From NCBI RefSeq assembly GCF_016433145.1, contig NC_058134.1, positions 48,404,388 to 48,468,387 of the forward strand: DNA of 64,000 bases, read 5' to 3'. The notes beneath the pieces were generated by a model. The model saw only the letters and a list, made by a program, of their open reading frames with translations, did not search any database and was not told the origin of the DNA. A program made the position numbers and the translations under genes. This document shows, in pieces, positions 2,695 to 29,768 of the stretch. Position 1 is the first letter of the stretch, and each line of letters opens with the position of its first letter. The stretch is from Gracilinanus agilis. Its lineage: Eukaryota.

Positions 2695-3402
2695 GATTTC
2701 TTAATAATAATTACTTGTAAATACATATATTAGAAATACTTACTCCAACTTTTATTTATGACATTTCTAAAGCACTTTCCCACCTCAGACCTCATTCACT
2801 GTTAGCAAGATGTTAGGAATTCCTGTGCTTTCCTACATGAGTCCCCATCCTCTGGGGATCTTAAGAAGGACAGTGGATGGGTCCTCTGGCATGAAGGGAG
2901 GTAATAGTCCCATTGAGTGGAATATGTGTGATCTAAAATCTGGTGGGATTAGAGATGTAATCACAGAAGTAGGAAACAAGGGATCAGGAATCACTGTTGG
3001 AGGACTGATGGGAGGGAGAGTAAAATAACTGGCAGAGGTTCCTGCTTCAGCTATTGAAGGAGGAAGAGCTCTAGGGAGTTCTGGATCTGGCTCCAGCTTA
3101 AGTCCAGAGTCTGAGGTTCCTTCTTTTTCCTTTTCTTTTCCTCTGCCTACCTGCAAACTTGCCCATTTCACATAAAGCTTTGTCCCCTTTACAATGAGTT
3201 TGTTGAAGGACTTCTCAGCAGCCATCTCTGCAGCTTGCTTGGCAGCAAACTGGATGAAAGCCCAGTGTTGCCTCTGTCCAACTATTTATTACCTTTAGGA
3301 TCTCACCGAACTGCTCCAAGTGATTTCTGAGCTCACTTTCACTGATGGCATCTCCCAGGCCGCCCATATAGAGTGTAGTAATGGTCTCATCAGCTGGTGG
3401 GT
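2695..3402 (-). pseudogene. RBM22: RBM22 processed pseudogene, copy 1 (RRM, proline-rich C-terminus and 3' UTR)
   Basis: Minus-strand translation reads [34 protein letters not shown]..(frameshift)..[53 protein letters not shown]..(frameshift)..[12 protein letters not shown]. This matches human RBM22 ([31 protein letters not shown]...[13 protein letters not shown]...GKEKEKDGTTDSGIKLEP...DPQRMGAHAGKH). No introns; frameshifted. Confidence 0.9.
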
Positions 3403-3731: not shown

Positions 3732-4960
3732 GATTTCTTAATAATAATGATTGGTAAATACATATGTTAGAAATATTTACTCCAACTTTTAGTTATGACA
3801 TTTCTAAAGCACTTTCCCACCTCAGACCTCAATCACTGTTAGCAAGATGTTAGGAATTCCTGTGCTTTCCTACATGAGTCCCCATCCTCTGGGGATCTTA
3901 AGAAGGACAGTGGATGGGTCCTCTAGCATGAAGGGAGGTAATAGTCCCATTGAGTGGAATATGTGTGATCTAAAATCTGGTGGAATTAGAGATGTAATCA
4001 CAGAAGAAGGGAACAGGGAAACAGGACTCACTGTTGGAGGACTAATGGGAGAGAGTGAAGTGGGACACCTGAAAAATGACAAACACTCAGGTTTAGAAGT
4101 TTTAGGGACCTTTAATAACCGCTTGACCAGGGAATCCTCCATAAGTAAGCACAGAACATATATAGGAAAATAAGTTGGCGGAAACTTTCCTTGGTGCGCA
4201 TTCCAAAGGATAGGATTGGTGTGTTCAAAAATATACATTCCTTAAGCAAGCAAGCAAGCACTTTCTCAGAATCAAATGTGGTGCTGTTAGCAACTAGGAA
4301 GGGTCAGGCAAGTGGACAGAAGGGAAGTGAGATGAGAGGTTGGGTGAAAACCCAGCTAGGTTCCCATGAGGGGCCCATAAGGGGCTCTGTTAATTTTTAG
4401 TCTTCTCTGCTCCATTACAGGAGATTAAAATAACTGGCAGAGGTTCCTGCTTCAGCTATTGAAGGAGGAAGAGCTCTAGGGAGTTCTGGATCTGGCGCCA
4501 GCTTCAGTCCAGAGTCTGAGGTTCCTTCTTTTTCCTTTTCTTTTCCTCTGCCTACCTGCAATCTTACCCATTTCACATGAAGCCTTTTCCCCTTTACAAT
4601 GAGTTTGTTGAAGGACTTCTCAGCAGCCATCTGTGCTGCTTGCTTGGCAGCAAACTGGATGAAAGCCCAGTGTTGCCTTTGTCCAATTATATATTACCTT
4701 TAGGATTTCTGATTTCAGTCTCACTGATGGTATCTCCCAGGCCGCCAATATAGAGCCTCATGAGAATTGTCTTATCAGCTGGTGAGTCCAGGGGAAGCAT
4801 TGTTGAAGCCTGGTTTTAGAAGCTTCTCTGCTACAGGATCCTGAATCCCACAATAGGCCATCTCTGATGTTCTGAGCAGCAAGAGGATCTTCAGGGCCTG
4901 GAGGCTTCTCCTGTCTGTATGGACACCTCTCTCCTCTTTATAAGTCTCCTTTCCCCCTTC
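3732..4960 (-). pseudogene. RBM22: RBM22 processed pseudogene, copy 2 (CCCH finger end to 3' UTR), split by a solo LTR
   Basis: Translation reads [91 protein letters not shown]. The 3' part and flank are highly similar to copy 1 (2695-2815 vs 3732-3852). Confidence 0.9.
4056..4419 (-). mobile_element. Solo ERV LTR (364 bp) inserted into RBM22 copy 2
   Basis: Minus strand TGTAA...TTCA with a TATA-like run and ATTAAA. It is flanked by a 4-bp TSD with one mismatch (4052-4055 agag / 4420-4423 ggag). Removing it restores RBM22 sequence colinear with copies 1 and 3. Confidence 0.85.
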
Positions 4961-5994: not shown

Positions 5995-7030
5995 ACTGTT
6001 TAAAAACTATTTATTCCAAGTTTTGTTCCTTACATTTTTAAAGTACTTCATCACCTAAAAGCCCAACCTGGGTAGCAAGTTGTTGGAGATGCCTATCCTT
6101 TCCTAGAGGAGCCCCCATCCTCTGGGGATCTTGAGATGAATAGTGGATGTATCCTGGAGCTGGCATGAAGGGAGGTAGGCGATGGTCCCATTCTGTGAAA
6201 TATGTGTGATTTTAAATCTGCTGGGAGTGAAAGTGCAATCTGAGGAGGAGGGGGCAGGTCAACATGAACCCCTGCTAGAAGACCAGTGGGAGGGAGATTA
6301 AAATAACTGGCAGCTGCTGGAAGAGAAGGAAGAACTCCAGGATTTCCTGGAACCAGCTCCAGCTTAAGTCCTGAGTCTGTGGTTCCTTCACTTTCTTTTC
6401 CTCTGCCCATTTCACTTCAAGTCTTCAATCCTTTACAACAAGTTTGTAAAGGACTTCTCAGCAGCCATCTCTGCAGTTTGCCTGGCAGCAAACTGGATGA
6501 AAACCCAGGGTTGCCTCTGTCCAACTGTGCCTCTGTTACCTTTAGGATCTCAGGAATTGCTCCAAATGATTTTTTAAAACCCTTATCTTCCATCTTGGAA
6601 TCAATACTGTGTATTAGTTCCAAGGCAGAAGAGTGGAAAGGACTAGGCAATGGGTCAATTGACTTGCCCAGGGTCACACAGCCAGGAAGTGTCTCAGACC
6701 AGATTTGAACCTAGGACCTCCCATCTCTAGGCCTGGTTCTCAATTGACTGAACCACTTAGCTGCTCCCTCCAAGTGATTTTTGAGATGAGTTTCACTGAT
6801 GGTATCTCCCAGGCCACCAATATAGAGTGTGGTAATGATCTCTTCAGCTGGTGAGTCCGGAGGAAGCATTGTTGAAGTTCATTTTACAAGCTTCTCTGCC
6901 ACCAGATCCTGAATCCCATAAAAAAGATCTCTGATGTTCTGAGCTGCAAGAGGATCTTTAGGGTCTGGACGCTTCTCATGTCTGTATGGACACTTCTCTT
7001 AAGCAGTCCACAGGAATCCTCTTTTATTTC
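5995..7030 (-). pseudogene. RBM22: RBM22 processed pseudogene, copy 3 (most divergent), split by a SINE
   Basis: Translation reads [54 protein letters not shown]..[SINE]..[42 protein letters not shown]. The 3' UTR has AATAAA near 6010. Weak similarity may extend 5' to about 7090. Confidence 0.88.
6575..6767 (-). mobile_element. SINE1_Mdo-type tRNA-derived SINE inserted in RBM22 copy 3
   Basis: Full SINE body with a 15-bp TSD: ctccaaatgattttt (6560-6574) / ctccaagtgattttt (6768-6782). Confidence 0.9.
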
Positions 7031-7157: not shown

Positions 7158-7760
7158 TCAGAAAANAACTCCAAGGAGAAACTTAAGGACTTTGATTATG
7201 ATATTCATGTCTTCACAATCATCCCCCTTTCCTAAGGATTTTCCCAGTGCCTCTAATTCTTCAATAGTGGTGTTTTCTTCATGGACCTTCAGGTCATTCT
7301 GTGTGGCCTTTTCTCCTGGTTCTTGACCAGCAACCATTTCATTAAGGTACTGTTGATCAATCTTATCCAAAGCTGCCTTCAAGTCATTCCTTAAACCCTT
7401 GTTAACCTCTTGTGTGAGAATCTCTATCTTTCTTAAACGTTGAAATGCCTCATAATCAGTTTCTCCAAACAATCTAACTGGTTGTCCTCTTTCTCTTAAC
7501 TGCCTGATGACCTCATGCCTTGAAAGAGTCACAGGTGATTTTTCCTCTGCCATTTCCAGTTCTAATACTAGATTGGATGAAGGTAATGGTTTCTGATCCT
7601 TCTCTTTTTGCTGTACCTTGTAGCCACATCTTTCAAAGTATGCTTCCTCTTCTTTTTTGGAAAGTTCACTCTGTTTGAAGTATCTTTTATTTTCCCCAAG
7701 CAGCTTCTTGTCCTCCACCAGCTTCCGCTTCCTTGAGATCTCTGCTTTAAGGATATCCAT
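7158..7760 (-). pseudogene. PRPF18: PRPF18 processed copy: N-terminal 198 codons open, 3'-truncated (lacks the C-terminal Prp18 domain)
   Basis: [21 protein letters not shown]...[31 protein letters not shown]...KFLLGV aligns without gaps to human PRPF18 residues 1-198 (roughly 80-85% identity by eye against the remembered sequence). It is intronless. Similarity stops at a single N at 7166, followed by TGA. Confidence 0.93.
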
Positions 7761-8019: not shown

Positions 8020-8480
8020 TCCCATAACCTCTGGTTAGCTCAGAAGCCCCAGACAATTCTAAACTGGAACTCCCAAATGCCTCTTTTTATACTGCATCCT
8101 GGATGCTGGATCTACTAAGAGACCACTGGAGTTCACACCTAGGAGGAGTTCACACGTAGTCACTTGTGAACTTTGGGAAAGTCACTAGATAGTAAGCTCC
8201 TTACTTATCGCCTGTCAGCTGAAAGAAAGATGGGTTGTGAGTTTTCACCCTTCTTTTTTAGAAACTCCAAAACACAAGTCAATAGGGAGGTGTGATTCTC
8301 AGGTAAATAGCAGCAGATATAATATAAGGCCAATGACTTCTTGTGAGGTTGCTTTCATGTTCTAGGAATGTCCCTTGAAACTACACTAAGGATTCTTTGT
8401 TCTTACTTCTCCTTATTCCTGAGCTATGTCATCCAAGATTATATTAGCCAAATTATGTTGAATCTGACTTCAACAACCAC
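8020..8480 (-). promoter_or_regulatory. LTR-like promoter segment pointing at the CRNKL1-PRPF18-RBM22 array
   Basis: TATAAAAAG on the minus strand at 8083-8091, preceded by tandem GTGAACTCC motifs (8128-8154) that I recall from opossum ERV LTRs. No polyA signal or U5 follows; boundaries approximate. Confidence 0.5.
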
Positions 8481-10218: not shown

Positions 10219-10569
10219 TGTTAAAGGAAATTCCTTGTTCTCTTTGAGTTAGTAATTGTGAAAGGGAACCCCTTAGTCTCCTTGCCTAGTCAGATGAAGC
10301 AGGGGCAGGCAATCCCTCCTAGACCTAAAATGGATTCCTTGCACACTGCCATCATTTTCCCTTTCTGGGCTCACATCACACCTCTCAAGAAACTAGTGTC
10401 TCTTCCACATTGGTGGAGGAATAATGGACACACTGAGTTGCTTGAAGCCCTGGTATGACACTCACTAACTATCTCTGTCTTTGCCCTATCTCTTTGGCCT
10501 CCCACCTCTCCCTCCTCCCAAGGAGGACTCTTTAGCTCTATTGGAGAACAAAAAGAAGGATGGAAAGAC

Positions 10570-10720
10570 CAGGCAGAGCCAAGATGGCAGACAGGAAACA
10601 GGAAAACTGGAAACCTCCATGAGAAACCACCCCCCACAAAATGGAGATTCATGCCAATTCATCCCACAAAACTAATACTGGACTGAGTGCGAGAACCAAC
10701 AAGGGGATGGAGCTGGGAAA
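10570..10720 (+). mobile_element. L1 5' UTR-like fragment inside the duplicated unit (second copy about 13820-13970)
   Basis: GAGCCAAGATGGCGG start motif and tgccacaaaaccaatactgga...cagaagcaacaaggagatggag resemble remembered marsupial L1 5' UTR sequence. Confidence 0.45.
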
Positions 10721-11127
10721 GGAAATTTCTTTATTGTAACTCAATCAAGTAGTTAGAGAGCTCTACCCTTTGAATTCAATCAGCCAGAAACTCCTGAATC
10801 CTCCCTATGAGAGTTTATCACTACCAAAGGAGGAGAGGTGGATCCCACAGGCACTGTCCCCTGCTTGGGCAGTGCTGGCCAAATTGGGAGACTGCACCTG
10901 GTTCCTGGGAAGAGGGGGAGAGACAGGAAGTGACCTGCACAAAGGGGATGGCAGGCCAAGACCAAGGACACCTTCAGGCCCTCTGCCTGGGTGAGCTGAG
11001 CTAAAGAGAGATTCTGGGAGGCAGTCCACTCTTCCTGGAATCGGCTCTGGAGAGGCTTTCAGGCTGAGGGGCTGGAGCTCTGGGCAGGGTCTGCCCTGGT
11101 GGAACTCTGGCTAAAGACACCACTTGC

Positions 11128-11950
11128 ATGAAGGAATTCTTTGGCCCCTGAGGGTCAGTAGTTGGTGAAAGGGAACCCCTTTCATCTCTTTGCCTAGTCA
11201 GAGCTAAAGCTTAGCTGAACAAGAACTCCAGTAACCCTACTTAGTACCACACTAGGGATGAGAAGAGGGGATGAAGTCTCCTTCTTCTCCCTTTGGATAG
11301 AATCAACACAAGCTGGAGGAGCTCCCAAACCACTTGGTGAGTTCATCCCCTACTTAGTGCTAGGGGAGAAGCCAGCAAGAAACTTGGAGAGTTCCCACCC
11401 CTGCCCCCCTTTCTTGTAACTCAGAGAGTCAGAGACTTGTGAGTTTCCCCCCTGCCCCCACCTCAGCCAGTGCCTGGCCCTTGCCATGAATGAGGACAGC
11501 TGCAGGAAGTGGGGACTGGTTCCCCCCAAACCCCGCCCCCTGGGCGGAGCTAGAGGATTCGGGAAGCCTGATTGGTCCCCTGGAGGAGGGGCGGGAACTG
11601 GAAACCACCATAAAAGCCTTCAAGTCCCTGGGCTGAGCCAGACTGGTGAGGTGGAGTCTCTTGGAGGGTGTCTCCTGGAGAGAGTCTTCAAGAGAACTTC
11701 ACTGGACACTGGCAGGTGAGCCTTGGCTTCACTTTCAGCTGAGATTCTGACCCTTGGCAGACTTCTTTGGGCAGCTGCAAAGGACTGACTCCTTTCCTAG
11801 CTTCCTCAGAGACGAGCTTCCATCTTGGAGGAGGCATCCTAGTTCCTGACTACTAGGGGCCCTCCTGGCTGAGGAGGTAGCTCCAGTAGAGCTATTTTCT
11901 CTAAGCCTTCTCACATTGCTCTGCTCCATTGGTTCCCTTCCACTCTGGGA
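11128..11950 (+). promoter_or_regulatory. LTR-derived promoter and leader upstream of SLC7A6OS copy 1
   Basis: GC box 11531-11540, reverse CCAAT 11571-11575, GC box 11588-11595, CATAAAA 11609-11615, donor CAG|GTGAG at 11716. The stretch 11780-11845 resembles the reverse complement of the LTR at 18650-19000 (aaagactgactc..ttcc..atctgggaggaggc). Confidence 0.65.
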
Positions 11951-12170
11951 CAGAATTCTGACTAGACTAGAGATAGCATACCTTTGGCAAGCAGGATTTT
12001 TTCACCTCATTGAGGTGAGGTCCAACCACTCCATTGAACCTTTGCCCACTGCCTGAGGACTCCCAGGACATCCGGACTGGGGGAAGCCCCTGCCAGGGCC
12101 TGAGCTGGACTTCTGAACCTTTCAGAAACTCAGAAAGGAGGCCAGAGGGAAAGGAGAAGAGGGGCCTGGC

Positions 12171-12536
12171 ATGATGGAGGCCTGTGGGGCCCCAGCAGTG
12201 TTGCGAGTGAGGAGGAAGCGAGGAGAGGAGCCCCCTGAGGCACTCTTTGTCCCCTGTAAAAGGCAGAGGAGGGAGGATGGAGGCGAGGACTGGGGGTCCC
12301 CCCCTTCCCTGCCCCTGGGGGAGAACGTCTTCTTCAAGCTGGCGGCTACAGTGTCCTCCCAGCATGAACCTGTTCCAAAGTATGTCAGGGAAGCTCTTCA
12401 CAGACAGAGAGCCACCAGAGCCCTGAAGCCCTCATGTCAGAGTCATCAGAGAATCCAGCAGCATCTCCTAGCTAGGAAGCAGGGCACCAGGCAGCAAGAG
12501 CGCTACCACCTGCTCTCCACACACCGAGCCCCTCCT

Positions 12537-12576
<40 letters not shown>

Positions 12577-13244
12577 CCCAGCCTCCTCTAGACCCTGCCC
12601 ACACCACTCAGGGGCACCAGCTAGACTCTGGTCTTACCACGCCAAAGTCACAAAGACAGCAAGGAGCCACACTTCCCCAGGCACCCTCTGCACAAGGCTT
12701 CCACTCATTTGACAGCGTTCCTCAGGCCGCCTCTGAACAGGAGAAGCCCTCCGCGCCTGACACCTGCTCTCACGACTCTGACCCAGATGTCATCCTCTCT
12801 CATGCTGTCAAGCTCATGCGGGAGCACCTAGCCATCTCCAAGGAAGCCAAAGGAAGGCAGCATCGGGAAAGAGAGCAAGATTATGTCTATGACATTTACT
12901 ACCTGCACGCACCTCCCCCAGGACCCACTGAGAGCATCCCCTCTGTGCACAGCTACGGCCACGACTGGGAACTGATAGCCCCTGACCAGCAAGAACAGGA
13001 CATCTATGCTGAGGACCAGGAGGAAGAGGAGGATGAAAACAGTGAGAATCACTGGGGCAACCAGTACCCTGAGGAGCAAGAACCAAGCACGGACACAGAC
13101 AGCTCCAGGGCCTCTGATGAACAATATGGCAGCCTCAGTGATGAGGACAGGACTCTCATCACACCAAGGACATGCAACAAATATGCTGACCATGTGCTAA
13201 AGGAGTTTGACTATGACTGCTCCCAGGACTTTGATTCTGACTAA
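12171..13244 (+). CDS. SLC7A6OS: Intronless SLC7A6OS (Iwr1-like RNA polymerase II nuclear import factor) retrocopy 1, intact 357-aa ORF
   Basis: AVLRVRRKRGEEPPEAL, NVFFKLAATVSSQ, SDPDVIL, DYVYDIYY, EDENSENHWGNQYPEE and KEFDYDCSQDFDSD* match human SLC7A6OS from start to stop. No introns, stops or frameshifts. Confidence 0.9.
12537..12576 (+). repeat. (GCACAG)6 coding repeat giving an (AQ)6 tract (second copy 15786-15825)
   Basis: Direct reading of the sequence; in frame within the SLC7A6OS ORF. Confidence 0.95.
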
Positions 13245-14376
13245 GGACTACACAAACATTCACCCGGTCCCCAGCATCAGCCCCCGAGGTGCTCCTCTTT
13301 CAAAGCTCCCAACATGGCCCCCTTCACCTGCTGCCTCCCCTCTGGGACACCTGCACTTCTCCACCATGCTTCAACAAGCACCTCCGTAGAAGAATCTCAT
13401 TGCCACTCAACATCCCCTCGGCCCCATCATTCCACATCATCACTTGCCTCTCATTCCAGGCTGGAGCCAACTCACCCCACTGAGCTACAAGGGGTCTCAG
13501 GAGACATTTCCTTCAGACGATCCATTTCACAGCTTCAGAAAGGATGAGGCAGGGGCAGCCAATCACTCCTACACCTAAAATGGATTCCTTGCACACTGCC
13601 ATCATTTTCCCTTTCTGGGCTCACATCACAACTCTCAAGAAAATAGTGTCTCTTCCACATTGCTGGGGGAAGAATGCACACACTGAGTTGCTCCAAGCCC
13701 TGCTGGGACTCTCACTAACTAACTCTGTCTTTGCCCTATCTCTTTGGCCTCCCACCTCTCCCTCCTCCCAAGGAGGACTCTTTAGCTCTATTGGAGAACA
13801 AAAAGAAGGATGGAGAGACCAGGCAGAGCCAAGATGGCGGACAGGAAATAGCAAAACTGGAAACCTCCATGAGAAAGCACCCCCACAAATTGGAGATTCA
13901 TGCCAATTCATGCCACAAAACCAATACTGGACTGAGTGCCAGAAGCAACAAGGAGATGGAGGCGGGAAAGGAAATGTCTTTGTTTTAACTCCATCAAGTA
14001 GTTAGACAGCTCTACCCTTTGAACTCAATCAGCCAGAAACTCCTGAATCCTGGCGATGAGAGTTTATCACTACCAAAGGAGGAGAGGTGGATCCCACAAG
14101 CACTGTCCCCTGCTTGGGCAGTGCTGGCCAAATGGGGAGACTGCACCTGGTTCCTGGGAAGAGGGGGAGAGACAGGAAGTGACCTGCACAAAGGGGATGG
14201 CAGGCCAAGACCAAGGACACCTTCAGGCCCTCTGCCTGGGTGAGCTGAGCTAAAGAGAGATTCTGGGAGGCAGTCCACTCTTCCTGGAATCGGCTCTGGA
14301 GAGGCTTTCAGGCTGAGGGGCTGGAGCTCTGGGCAGGGTCTGCCCTGGTGGAACTCTGGCTAAAGACACCACTTGC

Positions 14377-15199
14377 ATGAAGGAATTCTTTGGCCCCTGA
14401 GGGTCAGTAGTTGGTGAAAGGGAACCCCTTTCATCTCTTTGCCTAGTCAGAGCTAAAGCTTAGCTGAACAAGAACTCCAGTAACCCTACTTAGTACCACA
14501 CTAGGGATGAGAAGAGGGGATGAAGTCTCCTTCTTCTCCCTTTGGATAGAATCAACACAAGCTGGAGGAGCTCCCAAACCACTTGGTGAGTTCATCCCCT
14601 ACTTAGTGCTAGGGGAGAAGCCAGCAAGAAACTTGGAGAGTTCCCACCCCTGCCCCCCTTTCTTGTAACTCAGAGAGTCAGAGACTTGTGAGTTTCCCCC
14701 CTGCCCCCACCTCAGCCAGTGCCTGGCCCTTGCCATGAATGAGGACAGCTGCAGGAAGTGGGGACTGGTTCCCCCCAAACCCCGCCCCCTGGGCGGAGCT
14801 AGAGGATTCGGGAAGCCTGATTGGTCCCCTGGAGGAGGGGCGGGAACTGGAAACCACCATAAAAGCCTTCAAGTCCCTGGGCTGAGCCAGACTGGTGAGG
14901 TGGAGTCTCTTGGAGGGTGTCTCCTGGAGAGAGTCTTCAAGAGAACTTCACTGGACACTGGCAGGTGAGCCTTGGCTTCACTTTCAGCTGAGATTCTGAC
15001 CCTTGGCAGACTTCTTTGGGCAGCTGCAAAGGACTGACTCCTTTCCTAGCTTCCTCAGAGACGAGCTTCCATCTTGGAGGAGGCATCCTAGTTCCTGACT
15101 ACTAGGGGCCCTCCTGGCTGAGGAGGTAGCTCCAGTAGAGCTATTTTCTCTAAGCCTTCTCACATTGCTCTGCTCCATTGGTTCCCTTCCACTCTGGGA
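14377..15199 (+). promoter_or_regulatory. LTR-derived promoter and leader upstream of SLC7A6OS copy 2
   Basis: Appears identical to 11128-11950 (+3249); donor GT at 14965-14966. Confidence 0.65.
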
Positions 15200-15419
15200 C
15201 AGAATTCTGACTAGACTAGAGATAGCATACCTTTGGCAAGCAGGATTTTTTCACCTCATTGAGGTGAGGTCCAACCACTCCATTGAACCTTTGCCCACTG
15301 CCTGAGGACTCCCAGGACATCCGGACTGGGGGAAGCCCCTGCCAGGGCCTGAGCTGGACTTCTGAACCTTTCAGAAACTCAGAAAGGAGGCCAGAGGGAA
15401 AGGAGAAGAGGGGCCTGGC

Positions 15420-15785
15420 ATGATGGAGGCCTGTGGGGCCCCAGCAGTGTTGCGAGTGAGGAGGAAGCGAGGAGAGGAGCCCCCTGAGGCACTCTTTGTC
15501 CCCTGTAAAAGGCAGAGGAGGGAGGATGGAGGCGAGGACTGGGGGTCCCCCCCTTCCCTGCCCCTGGGGGAGAACGTCTTCTTCAAGCTGGCGGCTACAG
15601 TGTCCTCCCAGCATGAACCTGTTCCAAAGTATGTCAGGGAAGCTCTTCACAGACAGAGAGCCACCAGAGCCCTGAAGCCCTCATGTCAGAGTCATCAGAG
15701 AATCCAGCAGCATCTCCTAGCTAGGAAGCAGGGCACCAGGCAGCAAGAGCGCTACCACCTGCTCTCCACACACCGAGCCCCTCCT

Positions 15786-15825
<40 letters not shown>

Positions 15826-16493
15826 CCCAGCCTCCTCTAGACCCTGCCCACACCACTCAGGGGCACCAGCTAGACTCTGGTCTTACCACGCCAAAGTCAC
15901 AAAGACAGCAAGGAGCCACACTTCCCCAGGCACCCTCTGCACAAGGCTTCCACTCATTTGACAGCGTTCCTCAGGCCGCCTCTGAACAGGAGAAGCCCTC
16001 CGCGCCTGACACCTGCTCTCACGACTCTGACCCAGATGTCATCCTCTCTCATGCTGTCAAGCTCATGCGGGAGCACCTAGCCATCTCCAAGGAAGCCAAA
16101 GGAAGGCAGCATCGGGAAAGAGAGCAAGATTATGTCTATGACATTTACTACCTGCACGCACCTCCCCCAGGACCCACTGAGAGCATCCCCTCTGTGCACA
16201 GCTACGGCCACGACTGGGAACTGATAGCCCCTGACCAGCAAGAACAGGACATCTATGCTGAGGACCAGGAGGAAGAGGAGGATGAAAACAGTGAGAATCA
16301 CTGGGGCAACCAGTACCCTGAGGAGCAAGAACCAAGCACGGACACAGACAGCTCCAGGGCCTCTGATGAACAATATGGCAGCCTCAGTGATGAGGACAGG
16401 ACTCTCATCACACCAAGGACATGCAACAAATATGCTGACCATGTGCTAAAGGAGTTTGACTATGACTGCTCCCAGGACTTTGATTCTGACTAA
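15420..16493 (+). CDS. SLC7A6OS: Intronless SLC7A6OS retrocopy 2, intact 357-aa ORF, protein identical to copy 1
   Basis: Same translation as 12171-13244 in the ORF track. Confidence 0.9.
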
Positions 16494-17394
16494 GGACTAC
16501 ACAAACATTCACCCGGTCCCCAGCATCAGCCCCCGAGGTGCTCCTCTTTCAAAGCTCCCAACATGGCCCCCTTCACCTGCTGCCTCACCTCTGGGACACC
16601 TGCACTTCTCCACCATGCTTCAACAAGCACCTCCGTAGAAGAATCTCATTGCCACTCAACATCCCCTCAGCCCCATCATTCCACATCATCACTTGCCTCT
16701 CATTCCAGGCTGGAGCCAACTCACCCCACTGAGCTACAAGGGATCTCAGGAGACATTTCATTCAGACCCTTCATTTCACGGCTTCAGAAAGGATGAGGCA
16801 GGGGCAGCCAATCACTGCTATCTTATCACGCCTCTGAAGAAAGTATTGTCTCTTCTACATTGGTGGAGGAAGAATTTACACACTTAGTTGCTTGAAGCCC
16901 TTGTATGACTGTTACTAACTAACTCTATCTTTGCCCAATCTCTTGGGCCTCCCACCTCTCCCTCCTCCCAAGGAGTTGAAGCTTGTATTGATTCAATCAA
17001 AAGGTAGAAATAGGAGAGTTAATCCTGTCTTCACAACCTAGTCAGGTAAGTAAGTTACTGTTAACCAAAGTGTTAGCTCCAACAAGGTAAAGAGAATAAA
17101 GGATTCCCTTTCTGACTCAAAATATAACAAATATTGGTGACCACATAATTTCATAAAATCATTATCCAACTGTTAAATTTTACTCTTACAGTGCATATCT
17201 GACTTAAAATAGAAATCTCCTACTATGGCACAAGTGCTTAGGAGAGAGAGAGAGACACTCTTGTATCTAAACTTTTCCTCTGAGTTTGTGGGAAATTTAA
17301 TTTCAATGAAATTCACTGGAGGTGAGTATTAGATATATTCAGATGGTTGCACTGATCTTCAATAATAGGCCAGTAACAGAATAGGTTTTCCTAA

Positions 17395-17770
17395 AAGCAA
17401 GAAAAGACTTCAACAGTTCTTCCTCTGGAGGTAGATAGCATTCTTTGTCATAACTTCTTCAGCTTTGTCCCAGATCATTGTAGTTGTGTGAGTAGCTAAG
17501 TCTTTCATAGATCATTCCACAGTCTCTGTTATTGTATACAATGTTTTCCTGGTTCTGCTTATTTCACTCCGTATCAGTTTACATATATCTTTCCAGCTTT
17601 TTCTGAAATCATCCTGCTCATCATTTCTTATATCACAACAGTATTTCATCTCCATCATATTCTACAGTTTATTCAGCCATTCCCCAATTAATGGATATGT
17701 ACTCAATTTCCAATGCTTTGCCCCCAGAAAAAGAATTACTGTAAATATTTTTGTCCACATATGTCCTTGG
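17395..17770 (-). mobile_element. Old L1 3' fragment, paralogous to 9745-10130
   Basis: Same L1 segment and same non-L1 junction as at about 9730-9760. Confidence 0.7.
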
Positions 17771-18649
17771 GGCAGTCTGATGTTTGAAATCACTTAGCTT
17801 CTAAATGGAGCCAAAGGGCAGGACATTGCCTTGCCATTCACAATTTAACACCTGGTATAATGGACCAAATTGTGAAGGAACTCAAAGCCAAATATCATTT
17901 TTTTTGTTCAAAACAATTTTAAAAAATAAGCTTAAATTCCATTTAATACTTCTTCCAACTATAAGGAGATATTGTATTACTTCTTCAGATTCAGGGAATC
18001 TACCAGCATTTGCAGGATTTTTAAAAGTATCAGATGATCAAAGATGAGGCTTTTCTCCTTTGTTTGAGAGAAGACCAACCTCCTTTCTGTACTCAAAGGC
18101 TGGGATATTTTTCTCCCACTAGTGCCCAATGCTGCCTTGCCTGCTTTTAGAAAAATCTACCCCAGGTTTCTTCCTCAAGCTCTCATTCTCCCTGCCTTTT
18201 CTCACTGCTGTGCCACTTTATCTGCTCAGAAGGCAGGCTCCCTGGCTTGGGAAAGATGGAGTCTGTGGACATCTAGGGTTGGAGGAAAGGGGTTCCACAG
18301 GTATTATCTGGCTTCTGAGAGGAACAATCTCCAACTCAAAAGAACATTGAACTCAGAGTTAATGTAGCAAAGACTCTTTCATTTCATTCTCCTGGAAATC
18401 GGTACTTGGGAGCCAGTTTTACAGGTGTTACAACTGGCAGACAAGTACAAGAAATGGGAACAGGTTCAGGCTCCCTTTTATTAATGCCAAGCAGTCCCTC
18501 CTCACCATTGGCTGGTTCCCAAGAGTAATGAGCTCATCACAAGAGCCAGGTGTTTGGAATGCAATTTAGATTCCCAATCATTCACATTTGAGTAAAGTAA
18601 CTTCACTTGTTAGCCTCTTAAAAGAGGCTAATATAAAGGGGGGAAGTAA

Positions 18650-19000
18650 TGTAAGGGGTTAAAATTGAAGGGTGGGACTAAATTATTTAAGAGTATGGCT
18701 GCCATTAAATACTCCATTCCAAAATGATTTTTATGGTCATTTATTTACAAAAGGAGAAAGAGTGAAAGTATAGAAATGGGAAAGAGGGCAGAGTAGGAGA
18801 CCTAGCTTAACAAAGCTAGACTATGTGCTCAAGCCCTGGCTTCCTCTGGCAGCTATGAGGCCTCCTCCCAGATGAGGGGCCCCTCTGGAGGCTAGTATCT
18901 CCAGGAAAGGCCAAGGAAGCGAGTCAGTCTTTTTCACTCACCCACGTGGTAGTTCCTCCTCTTGTCTTGCTGACCTGATGTAGGGAAAAGGAGCTTAAGC
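18650..19000 (-). mobile_element. ERV LTR fragment (R/U5 part)
   Basis: Minus strand gtgggtgagtgaaaaagactgactc...AATAAA...; architecture typical of opossum ERV LTRs. Boundaries approximate. Confidence 0.6.
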
Positions 19001-19752
19001 TAGAAACATGAAACTGAACTCAATTTTCTTTTCTTTTCTTCTTCCATTATGGACTTAGGAGAGGAGTCCACCATCTTGCACAACCTGTTCCTCACATGCT
19101 CCAAAGTTACTAAGCTTTGATCAAACACCTTCTAAAGGAAAGCAACTGTGCTGAGCCTACTAATGGACACAGGCTTCTGTGGGTGAAGCAGGAAAGTGGG
19201 CAACAGTAGCTGAGATATAGAAGAAAGTAGTGAAGGTAGCTTGGCCATGGACTGAGGGAAGTAGTCATAGACACTAAGTAGTGGCAACTTTGTTTTATGA
19301 AAACCCCAAGTTTGCCTTTGTTCCAAGAAACTTGCCTTAAGGGAAATCCCAGACTGACCTTGTCTTAGACTGAGCAATAAACCTCAAAGTACCCAATGAT
19401 CTCGGCTTAGCTAGAATGAGTAGATAAAATCAAATCTTAAATACCCTTTTGTCTTAGAAGTTTCTCTTATTGGTAGAAATGCAAAAGGAAAACATATGAT
19501 TCATCACTTTTTTATATGAGTATATTATTTGGGATATTGGTTTTAAAAGATGACTGTATTACAAAAATGAATAATATGGAAATAGGTATTGAGTGATAAT
19601 ACATGTATAACCCAGTAGAATTGCTTGTCAGCTCCAGTAGGAGGGAGGGAAAAAAGGAGGGAGAGAACAAGAATCCTGTAATCATGGAAAAATACTTAAA
19701 AATGAATCAATAGATAATAATTTTTGAAAAGGACTTGAAAAAAATCTTCCAT

Positions 19753-20078
19753 TGTATCAGAGGCCTCTCCTGGGTAGTCCAGCCCTTGGCTGGAATTCTC
19801 CTTCCCTTGTCTCCATTGTAAAGCTAATCAAATGAACCTTCCTGTCCTATATTCCCCAAAAGACATATAAGACCCCAAGTTCCTCAGCTCACTGGAACAT
19901 CCCCTTTGGAGCTGCTTTTTCCCAGAGACAATGTTCCCCTTGTCCTATAGCTTTGTCTTGGTGTGGTATCTAGTGATTGACTCTATATAGGACCAATTAG
20001 AGTGTTGCTTTAACTTGTCCTGATTAAAGACTTGTGCTTTTTAACTGCTTTTGTGGTTCTGTGTTTTCAATGTTGACA
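19753..20078 (+). mobile_element. Probable solo LTR
   Basis: TGT...GACA ends, TATAA at about 19866, ATTAAA at about 20024; no TSD recognised. Confidence 0.5.
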
Positions 20079-20096
20079 TTAGAAAAAGATAAACTG

Positions 20097-20300
20097 GGCG
20101 GGACACCATGGTGGCTCAGTGGATTAAGAGCCAGACATGGAGACAGAAGGTCCTGATTTCAAATTTGGGCTCAGATTCTTCCTAGTTGTGTGACCCTGGG
20201 CAAGTCACTTAACTCCAAATGTCTAGCCCTTTCTGCTCTTCTGCCTTGGAATTAGTATTAAGTCTAAAAAAGAAAGTAAAGGTTATAAAAAAAAAAAAAA
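20097..20300 (+). mobile_element. SINE1_Mdo-type SINE
   Basis: tRNA-like head, gtgtgaccctgggcaagtcacttaac core and A tail. Confidence 0.8.
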
Positions 20301-21221
20301 GACTCTCTTCTGTATCTGTGTTGCTATTACTCACCTCCACAGGCTCCTAGCTGCTTCCAAGAGCAACTTAATAAGTAAATCAATTTGACTATACTTTTTC
20401 TATAGAGAAGAAAATAGAAAAAGGAATGTGAATTGGATGTACTAAAGGTAGCCTATGTGAGTGACCATTATGTCAACTGTGAATTTTCTTTGCATGTGAT
20501 ATAAATTCAAGAGCAATACACACTATACACAAATATAACTTAAGTGGAGACAGAAATGTTTGAACTAGTCTATCTAACTATTCATCCATCTATCTATACA
20601 ATTGTATGTGTGTATATGTACTTAAATGTGTTTATGCATGCAAATAGAGGGAAGGGAATGTTTTCTGTTTTGGGGGCCACACTGATAAGATGAAGAGTAT
20701 CTTGAGAGGGCTCCCCTCTTTCCTTATTTGAGTTGCTTTTCTGTCCCTTTACAATTTTATTTTATAATTTATTTATTGCAATTTATTAATTATTACTTTC
20801 CTAATTCTTCTTGGTTTAACAACAATGATAATAAGTATTAATAAGTAAATCAAATTGGTGTATGAAGTAGATAGATGGCACAGTGGATAGAGTGTCAGGA
20901 AGACCCGAGTTCCTATCTAGATTCAGACACTTATTAGCTCCCTGACCTTGGGCAATTCACTTAATCAGATTTGCCTCAGTTTTCTCATCTGTAAAAGGAC
21001 GAGGAGGAGGAAATAGCCAACCTGATACAAACAGGATGAGAGATAGAAATGACTGAAAACAGAAAAGACAGAAAATTGAAAAGTCAAAATGATTGAATAA
21101 TAAAGATGAGTTATTATTTTCCTTATTATTTGTTGTTTTGTTGCCCACCTGCCCAAGGGCAGCCAGGTTGTATCTCAGCTGTTTCTCAAACCCTAATCCT
21201 TTGCAAAAATAAACAACAAGT

Positions 21222-28721: not shown

Positions 28722-29768
28722 TCATAAGATATAGTCAGTGCTGAAGGAACGTGATGAGAACAGATGCCCAGATGTTCTGTCCATGTGTTCTTTGCCTAGC
28801 CAGAAATACCCTTTGTATTTGCGAAAGATTTCCGAGAGGTGGTTCTTGAACTTTTCCCCCACAAAAGCATAAATGACAGGGTTGACACAGCAGTGGGTGA
28901 AGGAGATGACCTCGGTTATCTGGGTGGCCTGGGTAAGTTTCTGACTTAGGTCACACCCGTCCAGGATATGTAGGTTGTGCAGAGAATTCAGGAAGAGCAT
29001 CATATTAAAGGGAACCCAGAAGAGGAAAAATGCCACCACTACAACAAGGACCAGTCTGATGGCCTTGATCTTGTGGTGGTTCTGACATCCTTTCAGGTGC
29101 CTGAGGATGTTGGCATAACAGAAAACAAGGATGCTGAGAGGGATGACAAGGCCCAGGATGTTGATTTCAAAGTGGGTGATGAGTTTCCACTCAATAGCTC
29201 TGTCATCATAGAAGGAGTAGCACTTGAGGGTGCCCTCCTCAGAAGATACTTGGTAAAACACCAGCAAAGGGACAGAGGCTAAAATGGCCATCAACCACAC
29301 CAGGAGGCTGACTGCCATGCCCTTCCTGGTTGTCCTCACCTTCAAGGCATAGACTGCATGGACAATGGCCAGGTACCTGTCCATGCTCATGATGGTGATG
29401 AAAAAGATGCTACTGAAGAAGCCGATGTAATAAATCCCTGAGATGATCTTACACATGATGTTCCCAAAGACCCACTGGTCCAGAGTGTAGTGTGTCAGGA
29501 AGGGGAAGGAGAAGACGAAGAGCAGGTCAGAGATGGCCAGGTTCAGCAGGTACACATCAGTCATGCTTCTCAGCTTCTTACAGGCTACCAGAACCAGAAT
29601 GACCAGGACATTCCCCAGCAGGCCAAAGCCAAAGAGTAGGCAGTAGAGCAGGGCAAGAAGCAGGGAGCTGGATTTCTGGGTGAATGCAGTATTGCAGGGG
29701 CTTGCCAACATTTCTGGATAATAGTCTTCTGTGGTCACGGACACATTTGGCTCCAGGGTGTAATCCAT
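28722..29768 (-). CDS. CCR8: C-C chemokine receptor 8, 348 aa, single coding exon
   Basis: MDYTL start, EDYYPE, CKKLRSMTDVYLLNLA, DRYLAIVHAVYALKVRT, KAIRLVL, FTHCCVNPVIYAFVGEKFK and the STDYIL end all match human CCR8; 7-transmembrane pattern; intact. Confidence 0.97.
   Translation of the reverse strand: MDYTLEPNVSVTTEDYYPEMLASPCNTAFTQKSSSLLLALLYCLLFGFGLLGNVLVILVLVACKKLRSMTDVYLLNLAISDLLFVFSFPFLTHYTLDQWVFGNIMCKIISGIYYIGFFSSIFFITIMSMDRYLAIVHAVYALKVRTTRKGMAVSLLVWLMAILASVPLLVFYQVSSEEGTLKCYSFYDDRAIEWKLITHFEINILGLVIPLSILVFCYANILRHLKGCQNHHKIKAIRLVLVVVVAFFLFWVPFNMMLFLNSLHNLHILDGCDLSQKLTQATQITEVISFTHCCVNPVIYAFVGEKFKNHLSEIFRKYKGYFWLGKEHMDRTSGHLFSSRSFSTDYIL

Follow-up and report, generated by a model that had tools for sequence, protein, structure and literature searches.

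The window, a 64,000-nt stretch of Gracilinanus agilis contig NC_058134.1 (positions 48,404,388 to 48,468,387), contains two head-to-tail units of a tandem array, each with an intronless copy of SLC7A6OS (Iwr1) downstream of two nested long terminal repeats, an older outer LTR-A and an inner LTR-B (Table 1). The units differ from one another at their outer edges (49 sites), and neither AATAAA nor ATTAAA occurs within the unit. Further diverged or partial cassettes of the same kind were found at C5:47.65-47.69M, C3:19.99M and C3:639.35M and on contigs C48335 and C32246; patches of 99-100% identity in some of these dispersed cassettes may reflect conversion or a polishing artefact. The two-unit array is bracketed on the left by the 5' end of an LTR-B (10219-10292) and on the right by an LTR-B 3' end joined to a 5' fragment in inverted orientation (16974-17190). 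Because the 4-mers flanking the two brackets do not match, the array does not look like a simple insertion.

Table 1. Features of the tandem array and of its first unit (positions in the window).
Feature	Position	Strand	Remarks
Array unit 1 (edge unit)	10293-13542	+	41 differences to unit 2 within 10298-10885
Array unit 2	13543-16975	+	period of 3249 nt; no difference from unit 1 over 10886-13337; with partial tail
LTR-A, 5' part (older outer LTR)	10714-11124	+
LTR-B 5' target-site duplication CACT	11121-11124	+	also seen in the C3:19.99M cassette
LTR-B, full-length solo LTR, 922 bp	11125-12046	+	aligned to both termini; candidate promoter; makes up most of the leader
Three derived GC boxes (CCGCCC 11533, GGGCGG 11542, GGGCGG 11589)	11533-11594	+	in 0 of 21 solo copies
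CCAAT box (reads ATTGG on + strand)	11571-11575	-	inherited; 17 of 21 solo copies
CATAAAA TATA-like box	11609-11615	+	inherited, unchanged; 19 of 21 solo copies
Derived splice-donor motif CAG/GTGAGC	11713-11721	+	candidate
LTR-B polyA hexamer site, now substituted	11949-11955	+	approximate position; its CAG is the proposed 11953 acceptor
LTR-B 3' target-site duplication CACT	12047-12050	+
LTR-A, continued past the LTR-B insertion	12051-12113	+	ends at about position 491 of 683; without AATAAA and U5
Candidate acceptor CAG	12123-12125	+	present in 3 of 3 cassettes that have the donor
SLC7A6OS (Iwr1) retrocopy	12146-13291	+	PF08574; five parent exons fused
Intact retrocopy ORF, 357 aa	12171-13244	+	repeated exactly 3249 nt downstream
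First AATAAA past the array	17095-17100	+	in the inverted LTR-B 5' fragment

Other retrocopies lie to the left of the array. Partial copies of a proline-rich ORF, which we take to be RBM22-like, occupy 2833-3225, 3870-4238, 4420-4709 and 6093-6410 on the minus strand, with a TATA-like motif upstream near 4940; a further copy lies outside the window, about 26 kb to its left. An intronless ORF with a PRP4-like domain (PF08799; 7158-7760, minus strand), presumably PRPF18-like, ends at an N at 7166 and has a TATA-like motif upstream near 8086. The RBM22-like and PRPF18-like copies together make up a group of retrocopied genes of the nuclear RNA machinery. The region is a mosaic of duplications: segments 17109-21000 and 1269-2612 have segmental duplicates, 85-94% identical, 12-40 kb left of the window. 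Farther right on the minus strand is an intact 348-aa ORF of the chemokine-receptor 7TM type (28722-29768; PF00001) that we assume to be CCR8-like.

The SLC7A6OS Retrocopy and Its Parent

The parent gene has five exons (C2:60890593-60898966), and its spliced product is exactly protein P0002, labeled by NCBI as SLC7A6OS of Gracilinanus agilis. The copy in the window lacks the four parental introns and is 78% identical to the parent in nucleotide sequence, with four of four indels in frame. Its protein is 59% identical to P0002, retains the Iwr1 domain and the N-terminal basic motif and carries a QA-repeat insert. No polyA tail was detected at the 3' end of the copy, where homology stops about 46 nt past the stop codon, and the missing tail and target duplication probably reflect later rearrangement. 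One concern was that the segment upstream of the ORF could be the parent's own upstream sequence. This proved not to be so: parent homology covers only 12146-13291, and the DNA upstream of the parent is unrelated and CpG-rich. The parent's own promoter was accordingly rejected as a source, as homology ends at 12146 and nothing matches upstream of it. An LTR-flanked ERV that had captured the gene was also rejected, since the unit has no second LTR 3' of the ORF and the repeat junction (13464/13465) joins two unique flanks.

Compared with the parent, dN/dS is 0.57 overall and 0.30 (N-terminal 60 codons), 0.87 (mid-region) and 0.52 by thirds, in a pairwise measure that includes the parent's own constraint and uses a parent CDS with 5 extra codons at one exon boundary. 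Compared with some paralogs it is near 1 (0.84 and 1.18), and two dispersed retrocopies contain stop codons. At the 199 residues that are invariant in ten marsupial parents, the retrocopy protein keeps 138 and has changed 61. In the protein tree its branch measures 0.45 + 0.05 changes per site, versus 0.03-0.04 for the opossum parents, and with regard to the age of the retrocopy relative to two opossum parents the shared sites number 10 versus 6. Constraint on the ORF exists but is relaxed. The 357-aa protein has no entry in the protein collection searched; of 7993 candidates scored, 12 were homologues, including the copy on C48335, and none of these 12 is a retrocopy from another species.

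Nested LTRs Upstream of the Retrocopy

A sequence-only reading of this DNA had proposed that the upstream segment derives from an LTR, and this origin is borne out. LTR-B is an interspersed repeat with at least 59 matches in its own genome (best 40 scored of 2968 candidates), it can be aligned to both ends of the family, and it is flanked by a CACT duplication. As a reference set we used 21 solo LTR-B loci from the G. agilis genome, chosen as the best matches to the window LTR, a selection that is biased toward the window state and not away from it. Solo copies with both ends found are about 775-900 bp long with TG/TA...CA-type ends, and perfect 4-bp duplications flank five of the nine measured; the window copy has kept its 5' TG, and its 3' CA is now CC. 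The U3-R-U5 order of the family is evident from CATAAAA in 19 and AATAAA in 16 of the 21 solos. By the rule on 4-bp duplications, LTR-B would be ERV1-like. Copy L013 is followed by a 16-mer that we presume to be PBS-like, and none of the 14 frames downstream of L013 had a Pfam match. Another solo copy, L043 (C2:60894864-60895613), lies antisense within intron 2 of the parent SLC7A6OS, probably by chance in so abundant a family.

The same reading had described the promoter LTR as lacking its polyA/U5 half. LTR-B, on the contrary, can be matched to the solo copies as far as its 3' end at 12046, has a CACT at either side and keeps U5, and only the hexamer is altered; both termini and both duplications rule out a half LTR. 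The truncated element is the outer LTR-A, which that reading had not recognised and which the description of a missing polyA half does fit. A resemblance that had been pointed out to the LTR at 18650-19000 is real but distant, and it is on the opposite strand (alignment score 54 on the minus strand versus a shuffled maximum of 38, with the plus-strand score of 23 at chance level), and that element is a related but different LTR. Relative to a 683-bp natural copy, LTR-A is interrupted by LTR-B at position 407 and resumes at 12051, and a paralog at C5:47.69M has the common flank and the whole LTR-A with neither LTR-B nor the retrocopy. The 4-bp duplication and this uninterrupted paralog show that LTR-B inserted into LTR-A; the 3' end of LTR-A was replaced by the retrocopy.

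Promoter Motifs Inherited, Gained, and Lost

The promoter motifs listed previously are all at the places given, with the corrections that the GC boxes number three, not two, and that the CCAAT box is present on the reverse strand only. The array unit has no full GC box besides these three. Each is one transition away from the state of the solo copies, and all are missing from the two older cassettes. We considered whether they could be ancestral CpGs that the solos have lost, and rejected this because the solos share one non-CpG state, fixed and always on the same strand, and not a mix of TG and CA; the boxes are thus gains. In two orphan copies one of the boxes reads GGGTGG, the state expected from CpG decay, so that the array retains what the orphans lose. 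All three near-miss GC-box hexamers close to the promoter were converted, versus none of nine in the rest of the unit (Fisher p 0.005, post hoc; transitions occur at a rate of ~0.09 per site).

The LTR-A motifs ATTGG (10897-10901) and ATAAAA (10948-10953), which the paralog without LTR-B still has, are changed to CCTGG and ATGGCA in all five array-lineage rows. Five of nine A/T positions were lost from the LTR-A promoter motifs versus none of nine from those of LTR-B (post hoc p 0.03; the nine unchanged LTR-B sites taken alone give p ~0.26). The LTR-B hexamer AATAAA, lost in 5 of 21 solos, is found in none of the four cassettes that cover the site: it reads AATAAT at C3:19.99M and C5:47.646M, is deleted in C48335 and is further substituted in the window. 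The cassettes, read as a series, show that AATAAA broke early, already in the oldest of them and before the GC bias described below began, that the head-to-tail junction formed after this loss, and that A/T-to-G/C changes then followed in the array lineage. This lineage is shown to have gained the donor and three GC boxes and to have lost the TATA and CCAAT boxes of LTR-A while keeping those of LTR-B. This pattern of gain, retention and loss favours a working promoter, as judged from motif states.

Base Composition of the Array Lineage

The GC content of LTR-B is 53% in the window and 38-42% in the solos. In 21 three-way comparisons of LTR-B, the array lineage had a median of 58 weak-to-strong versus 8 strong-to-weak changes, whereas the C3:19.99M lineage had medians of 10 versus 29. 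Over the first 380 nt of the ORF the corresponding counts are 22 versus 15 in the array lineage and 0 versus 20 in that of C3:19.99M. Differences between the edge and interior units lean toward G/C likewise (21 of 30). The CpG observed/expected ratio of the unit is 0.14 and the ORF has 19 CpGs in the retrocopy versus 38 in the parent, as for methylated DNA; the ratio of the promoter is 0.34.

GC-biased gene conversion in homogenised arrays is established theory, and we infer that it acted among the tandem copies to produce the AT-to-GC bias. Biased conversion would also explain much of the ATG loss in the leader and is the main rival to selection. Every motif gain is an A/T-to-G/C change and every motif lost was A/T-rich, changes that the bias alone would favour. 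Bias alone fits less well with the conversion of near-miss hexamers solely beside the TATA box, the loss of A/T positions from the outer but not the inner promoter motifs, and an AATAAA that broke before the bias set in.

Read Contigs Point to a Probably Collapsed Array

We examined read contigs from four public runs (X1-X4) of one study, whose kind is unrecorded; all four contain the array unit. The unit-to-unit junction (13540 to 10300) is bridged at the depth of the unit body in four of four runs, and only the unit-2 (interior) allele appears at all 37 listed edge sites in 10381-10885. Were there just two copies, the junction should have half the depth of the body and each edge site should show both letters; neither was seen, which implies a collapsed array. 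In X2 the unit contigs have depths of 2069-2865 and 11 contigs from single LTR loci elsewhere have 26-35, a ratio of 71-98 that is uncalibrated on chosen single-copy DNA, contig depth not being copy number. The two units of the assembly are thus likely to represent dozens of copies arranged head to tail, a firm inference from the junction and alleles, and the depth ratio of this one run gives an estimate of roughly 70-100. The cassette at C5:47.646M runs over the unit junction into 14530 N at C5:47648605, and this N run could conceal a second collapsed array.

Cover in X1, X3 and X4 thins at about 11450-11700, where X2 also breaks, and extra LTR-family cover is absent from 11281-11389. A contig of the parent 3' UTR is present in two of these three runs. 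The pattern in X1, X3 and X4 could come from RNA, but uncovered parts prove nothing, and we base no conclusion on it.

Splice Signals and the ATG-Free Leader

The splice motifs proposed previously, a donor at 11716 (CAG/GTGAG) and CAG acceptors ending at 11953 and 12125, are where they were said to be. The donor reads CAG/GTGAGC in the window and C48335 and CAG/GTGAAT at C5:47.646M, and is found neither at C3:19.99M nor in the aligned solos. The CAG at 12125 occurs in the window, C48335 and C5:47.646M and not at C3:19.99M, while that at 11953 is private to the array unit. Among the read contigs of the four runs, an assembled form of data that drops rare variants, none skips 11716-11953 or 11716-12125, and contigs of X1 and X3 run unspliced through both acceptors. 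One X4 contig has 46 foreign letters joined exactly at the acceptor AG (12124-12125); this piece was not found in the assembly when up to 1 mismatch was allowed, nor in 526 kb of loci examined, where the best match was 21 of 30.

As had been noted, no ATG occurs from the TATA box to the ORF start: the ATG-free gap (11491-12170; 681 nt) is the longest in the window save for its twin in unit 2, and under a dinucleotide model the 555-nt leader would be expected to contain 3.8 ATGs (p ~0.02). The further suggestion that this is what a translated message would show is weakened, since 4 of 21 solos are likewise ATG-free and the lineage loses A/T generally. Over the leader-equivalent stretch the solos have a median of 2 ATGs versus 7 CATs, and the two older cassettes have 3 and 6 ATGs; one out-of-frame ATG of LTR-A was removed by a 12-nt deletion common to the window and C48335. 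We rejected the absence of ATGs as proof of translation; the out-of-frame ATGs of the older cassettes would in any case fall within an 11716-12125 intron. On sequence grounds, the ATG-free leader lends slight support at most to a translated message.

Proposed Mechanism and Alternatives

Taken together, we think it probable that LTR-B acts as the promoter of the retrogene, with read-through via the broken hexamer and optional splicing from 11715 to 12126. Sp1-, NF-Y- and TBP-type factors would start transcription near 11640, and loss of the hexamer would let Pol II continue through R-U5. Whether spliced or not, the transcript would be translated from 12171/12174. As the unit has no polyA hexamer, transcripts would end at non-canonical sites or past the last unit, and we predict that they are made in germ cells or early embryos. 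It is likely that the 3.25-kb unit with its retrogene was amplified to dozens of tandem copies.

The same sequence changes could instead be by-products of an amplified macrosatellite that is silent or non-coding, in which biased conversion by itself created the GC boxes and the donor and wore away AATAAA, ATGs and stops. Such an origin is consistent with the 58 versus 8 weak-to-strong excess over the whole LTR and the same lean in 21 of 30 edge differences, and also with the low CpG, an inherited poverty in ATGs and dN/dS near 1 versus some paralogs (0.84, 1.18). It accounts poorly for GC boxes that arose only beside the retained TATA (3/3 vs 0/9), for the broken AATAAA of the C3:19.99M copy, in which GC bias is absent, and for indels that are in frame in four of four cases whereas two dispersed copies carry stops. 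We regard it as unlikely. It is more improbable still that the retrogene is expressed mainly from another start, through read-through from an upstream unit or a distant exon joined to the 12125 acceptor, with LTR-B serving mostly as intron or spacer. The lack of a polyA hexamer in the unit and the foreign letters joined at AG 12124-12125 in the X4 contig point in this direction; however, that piece is unmatched in the assembly and comes from one contig of one run, and the motif gains cluster at the LTR-B TATA.

Lastly, the array might be a source of small or regulatory RNA (a piRNA or endo-siRNA precursor) instead of protein. The read-through architecture, the LTR promoter and the other retrocopy fragments clustered nearby would suit this role, and passages on mouse oocytes describe LTR-driven recycling of pseudogenes into siRNA substrates (PMC5538554). 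Against it are the sense orientation, the intact ORF with in-frame indels and a nucleotide identity to the parent of only 78%, and we judge it very unlikely. The LTR-B-driven, protein-coding retrogene remains our preferred reading.

Comparison With Known Systems

Our literature search returned no report of SLC7A6OS retrocopies or of the G. agilis array, although supplementary retrocopy tables (e.g., PMC4772013) may list it; the retrocopy passages of that article leave LTRs unmentioned. LTR promoters on retrocopies are already known, and the promoter finding alone would be ordinary. In mouse oocytes, according to passages of PMC5538554, solo LTRs give a promoter and 5' exon to processed copies (78 of 842 such LTRs). 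The arrangement of a solo LTR, here a candidate promoter, upstream of a processed copy is alike; the LTRs there are of the ERVL/MaLR type with a native donor, whereas here we find 4-bp duplications, a new donor and GC boxes, and tandem amplification.

Iwr1 is described, in passages of PMC4372478, as having a role in Pol II import and as maternally expressed in zebrafish. Compared with SLC7A6OS/Iwr1 (PF08574), the retrocopy is alike in the domain and N-terminal basic motif and differs in its long branch and QA-repeat insert. A fuller and more tentative proposal, on balance doubtful, is that the locus is a 70-100-copy macrosatellite of a fast-evolving Iwr1/SLC7A6OS, with an LTR promoter re-engineered by the array's own GC-biased conversion (three Sp1 boxes and a donor added, the outer promoter erased) and polyadenylation only past the last unit. 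It would then be a marsupial counterpart of ELOA3 and D4Z4, setting the dose of Pol II available to germ cells or early embryos.

The array resembles D4Z4/DUX4, as described in passages of PMC13558733, in its retrogene unit of about 3.3 kb, in having a polyA signal distal to the repeats and none within a unit, and in its dispersed orphans. By this analogy, the AATAAA at 17095 is a candidate polyA signal for the array. On the other hand, DUX4 is a homeobox activator with a known embryonic role, and those passages describe no LTR promoter.

Another parallel is ELOA3 of primates (PMC10664989), a tandem retrogene cluster of 4-67 copies that an assembly gap hid before long reads. In both, an intronless copy of a Pol II-associated factor is repeated in head-to-tail units that each carry a transposon relic upstream; dN/dS is modestly below 1, and the copies are homogenised in ELOA3 and probably so here. 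ELOA3 units differ in having HSMAR2 and a CpG-rich exon, and their protein has been demonstrated to work (PMC10664989). The G. agilis unit, in comparison, is CpG-poor, has a nested LTR pair upstream and a marsupial host, and its expression is predicted. The locus is an apparently unreported, probably high-copy retrogene array for a second Pol II-associated factor, in a marsupial and invisible in the assembly, that is D4Z4-like in having no polyA signal inside the unit. Biased gene conversion is usually viewed as a neutral or harmful force, and the surviving paralogs, which record each step of the promoter refit, offer a natural series for testing whether it can build promoter elements.
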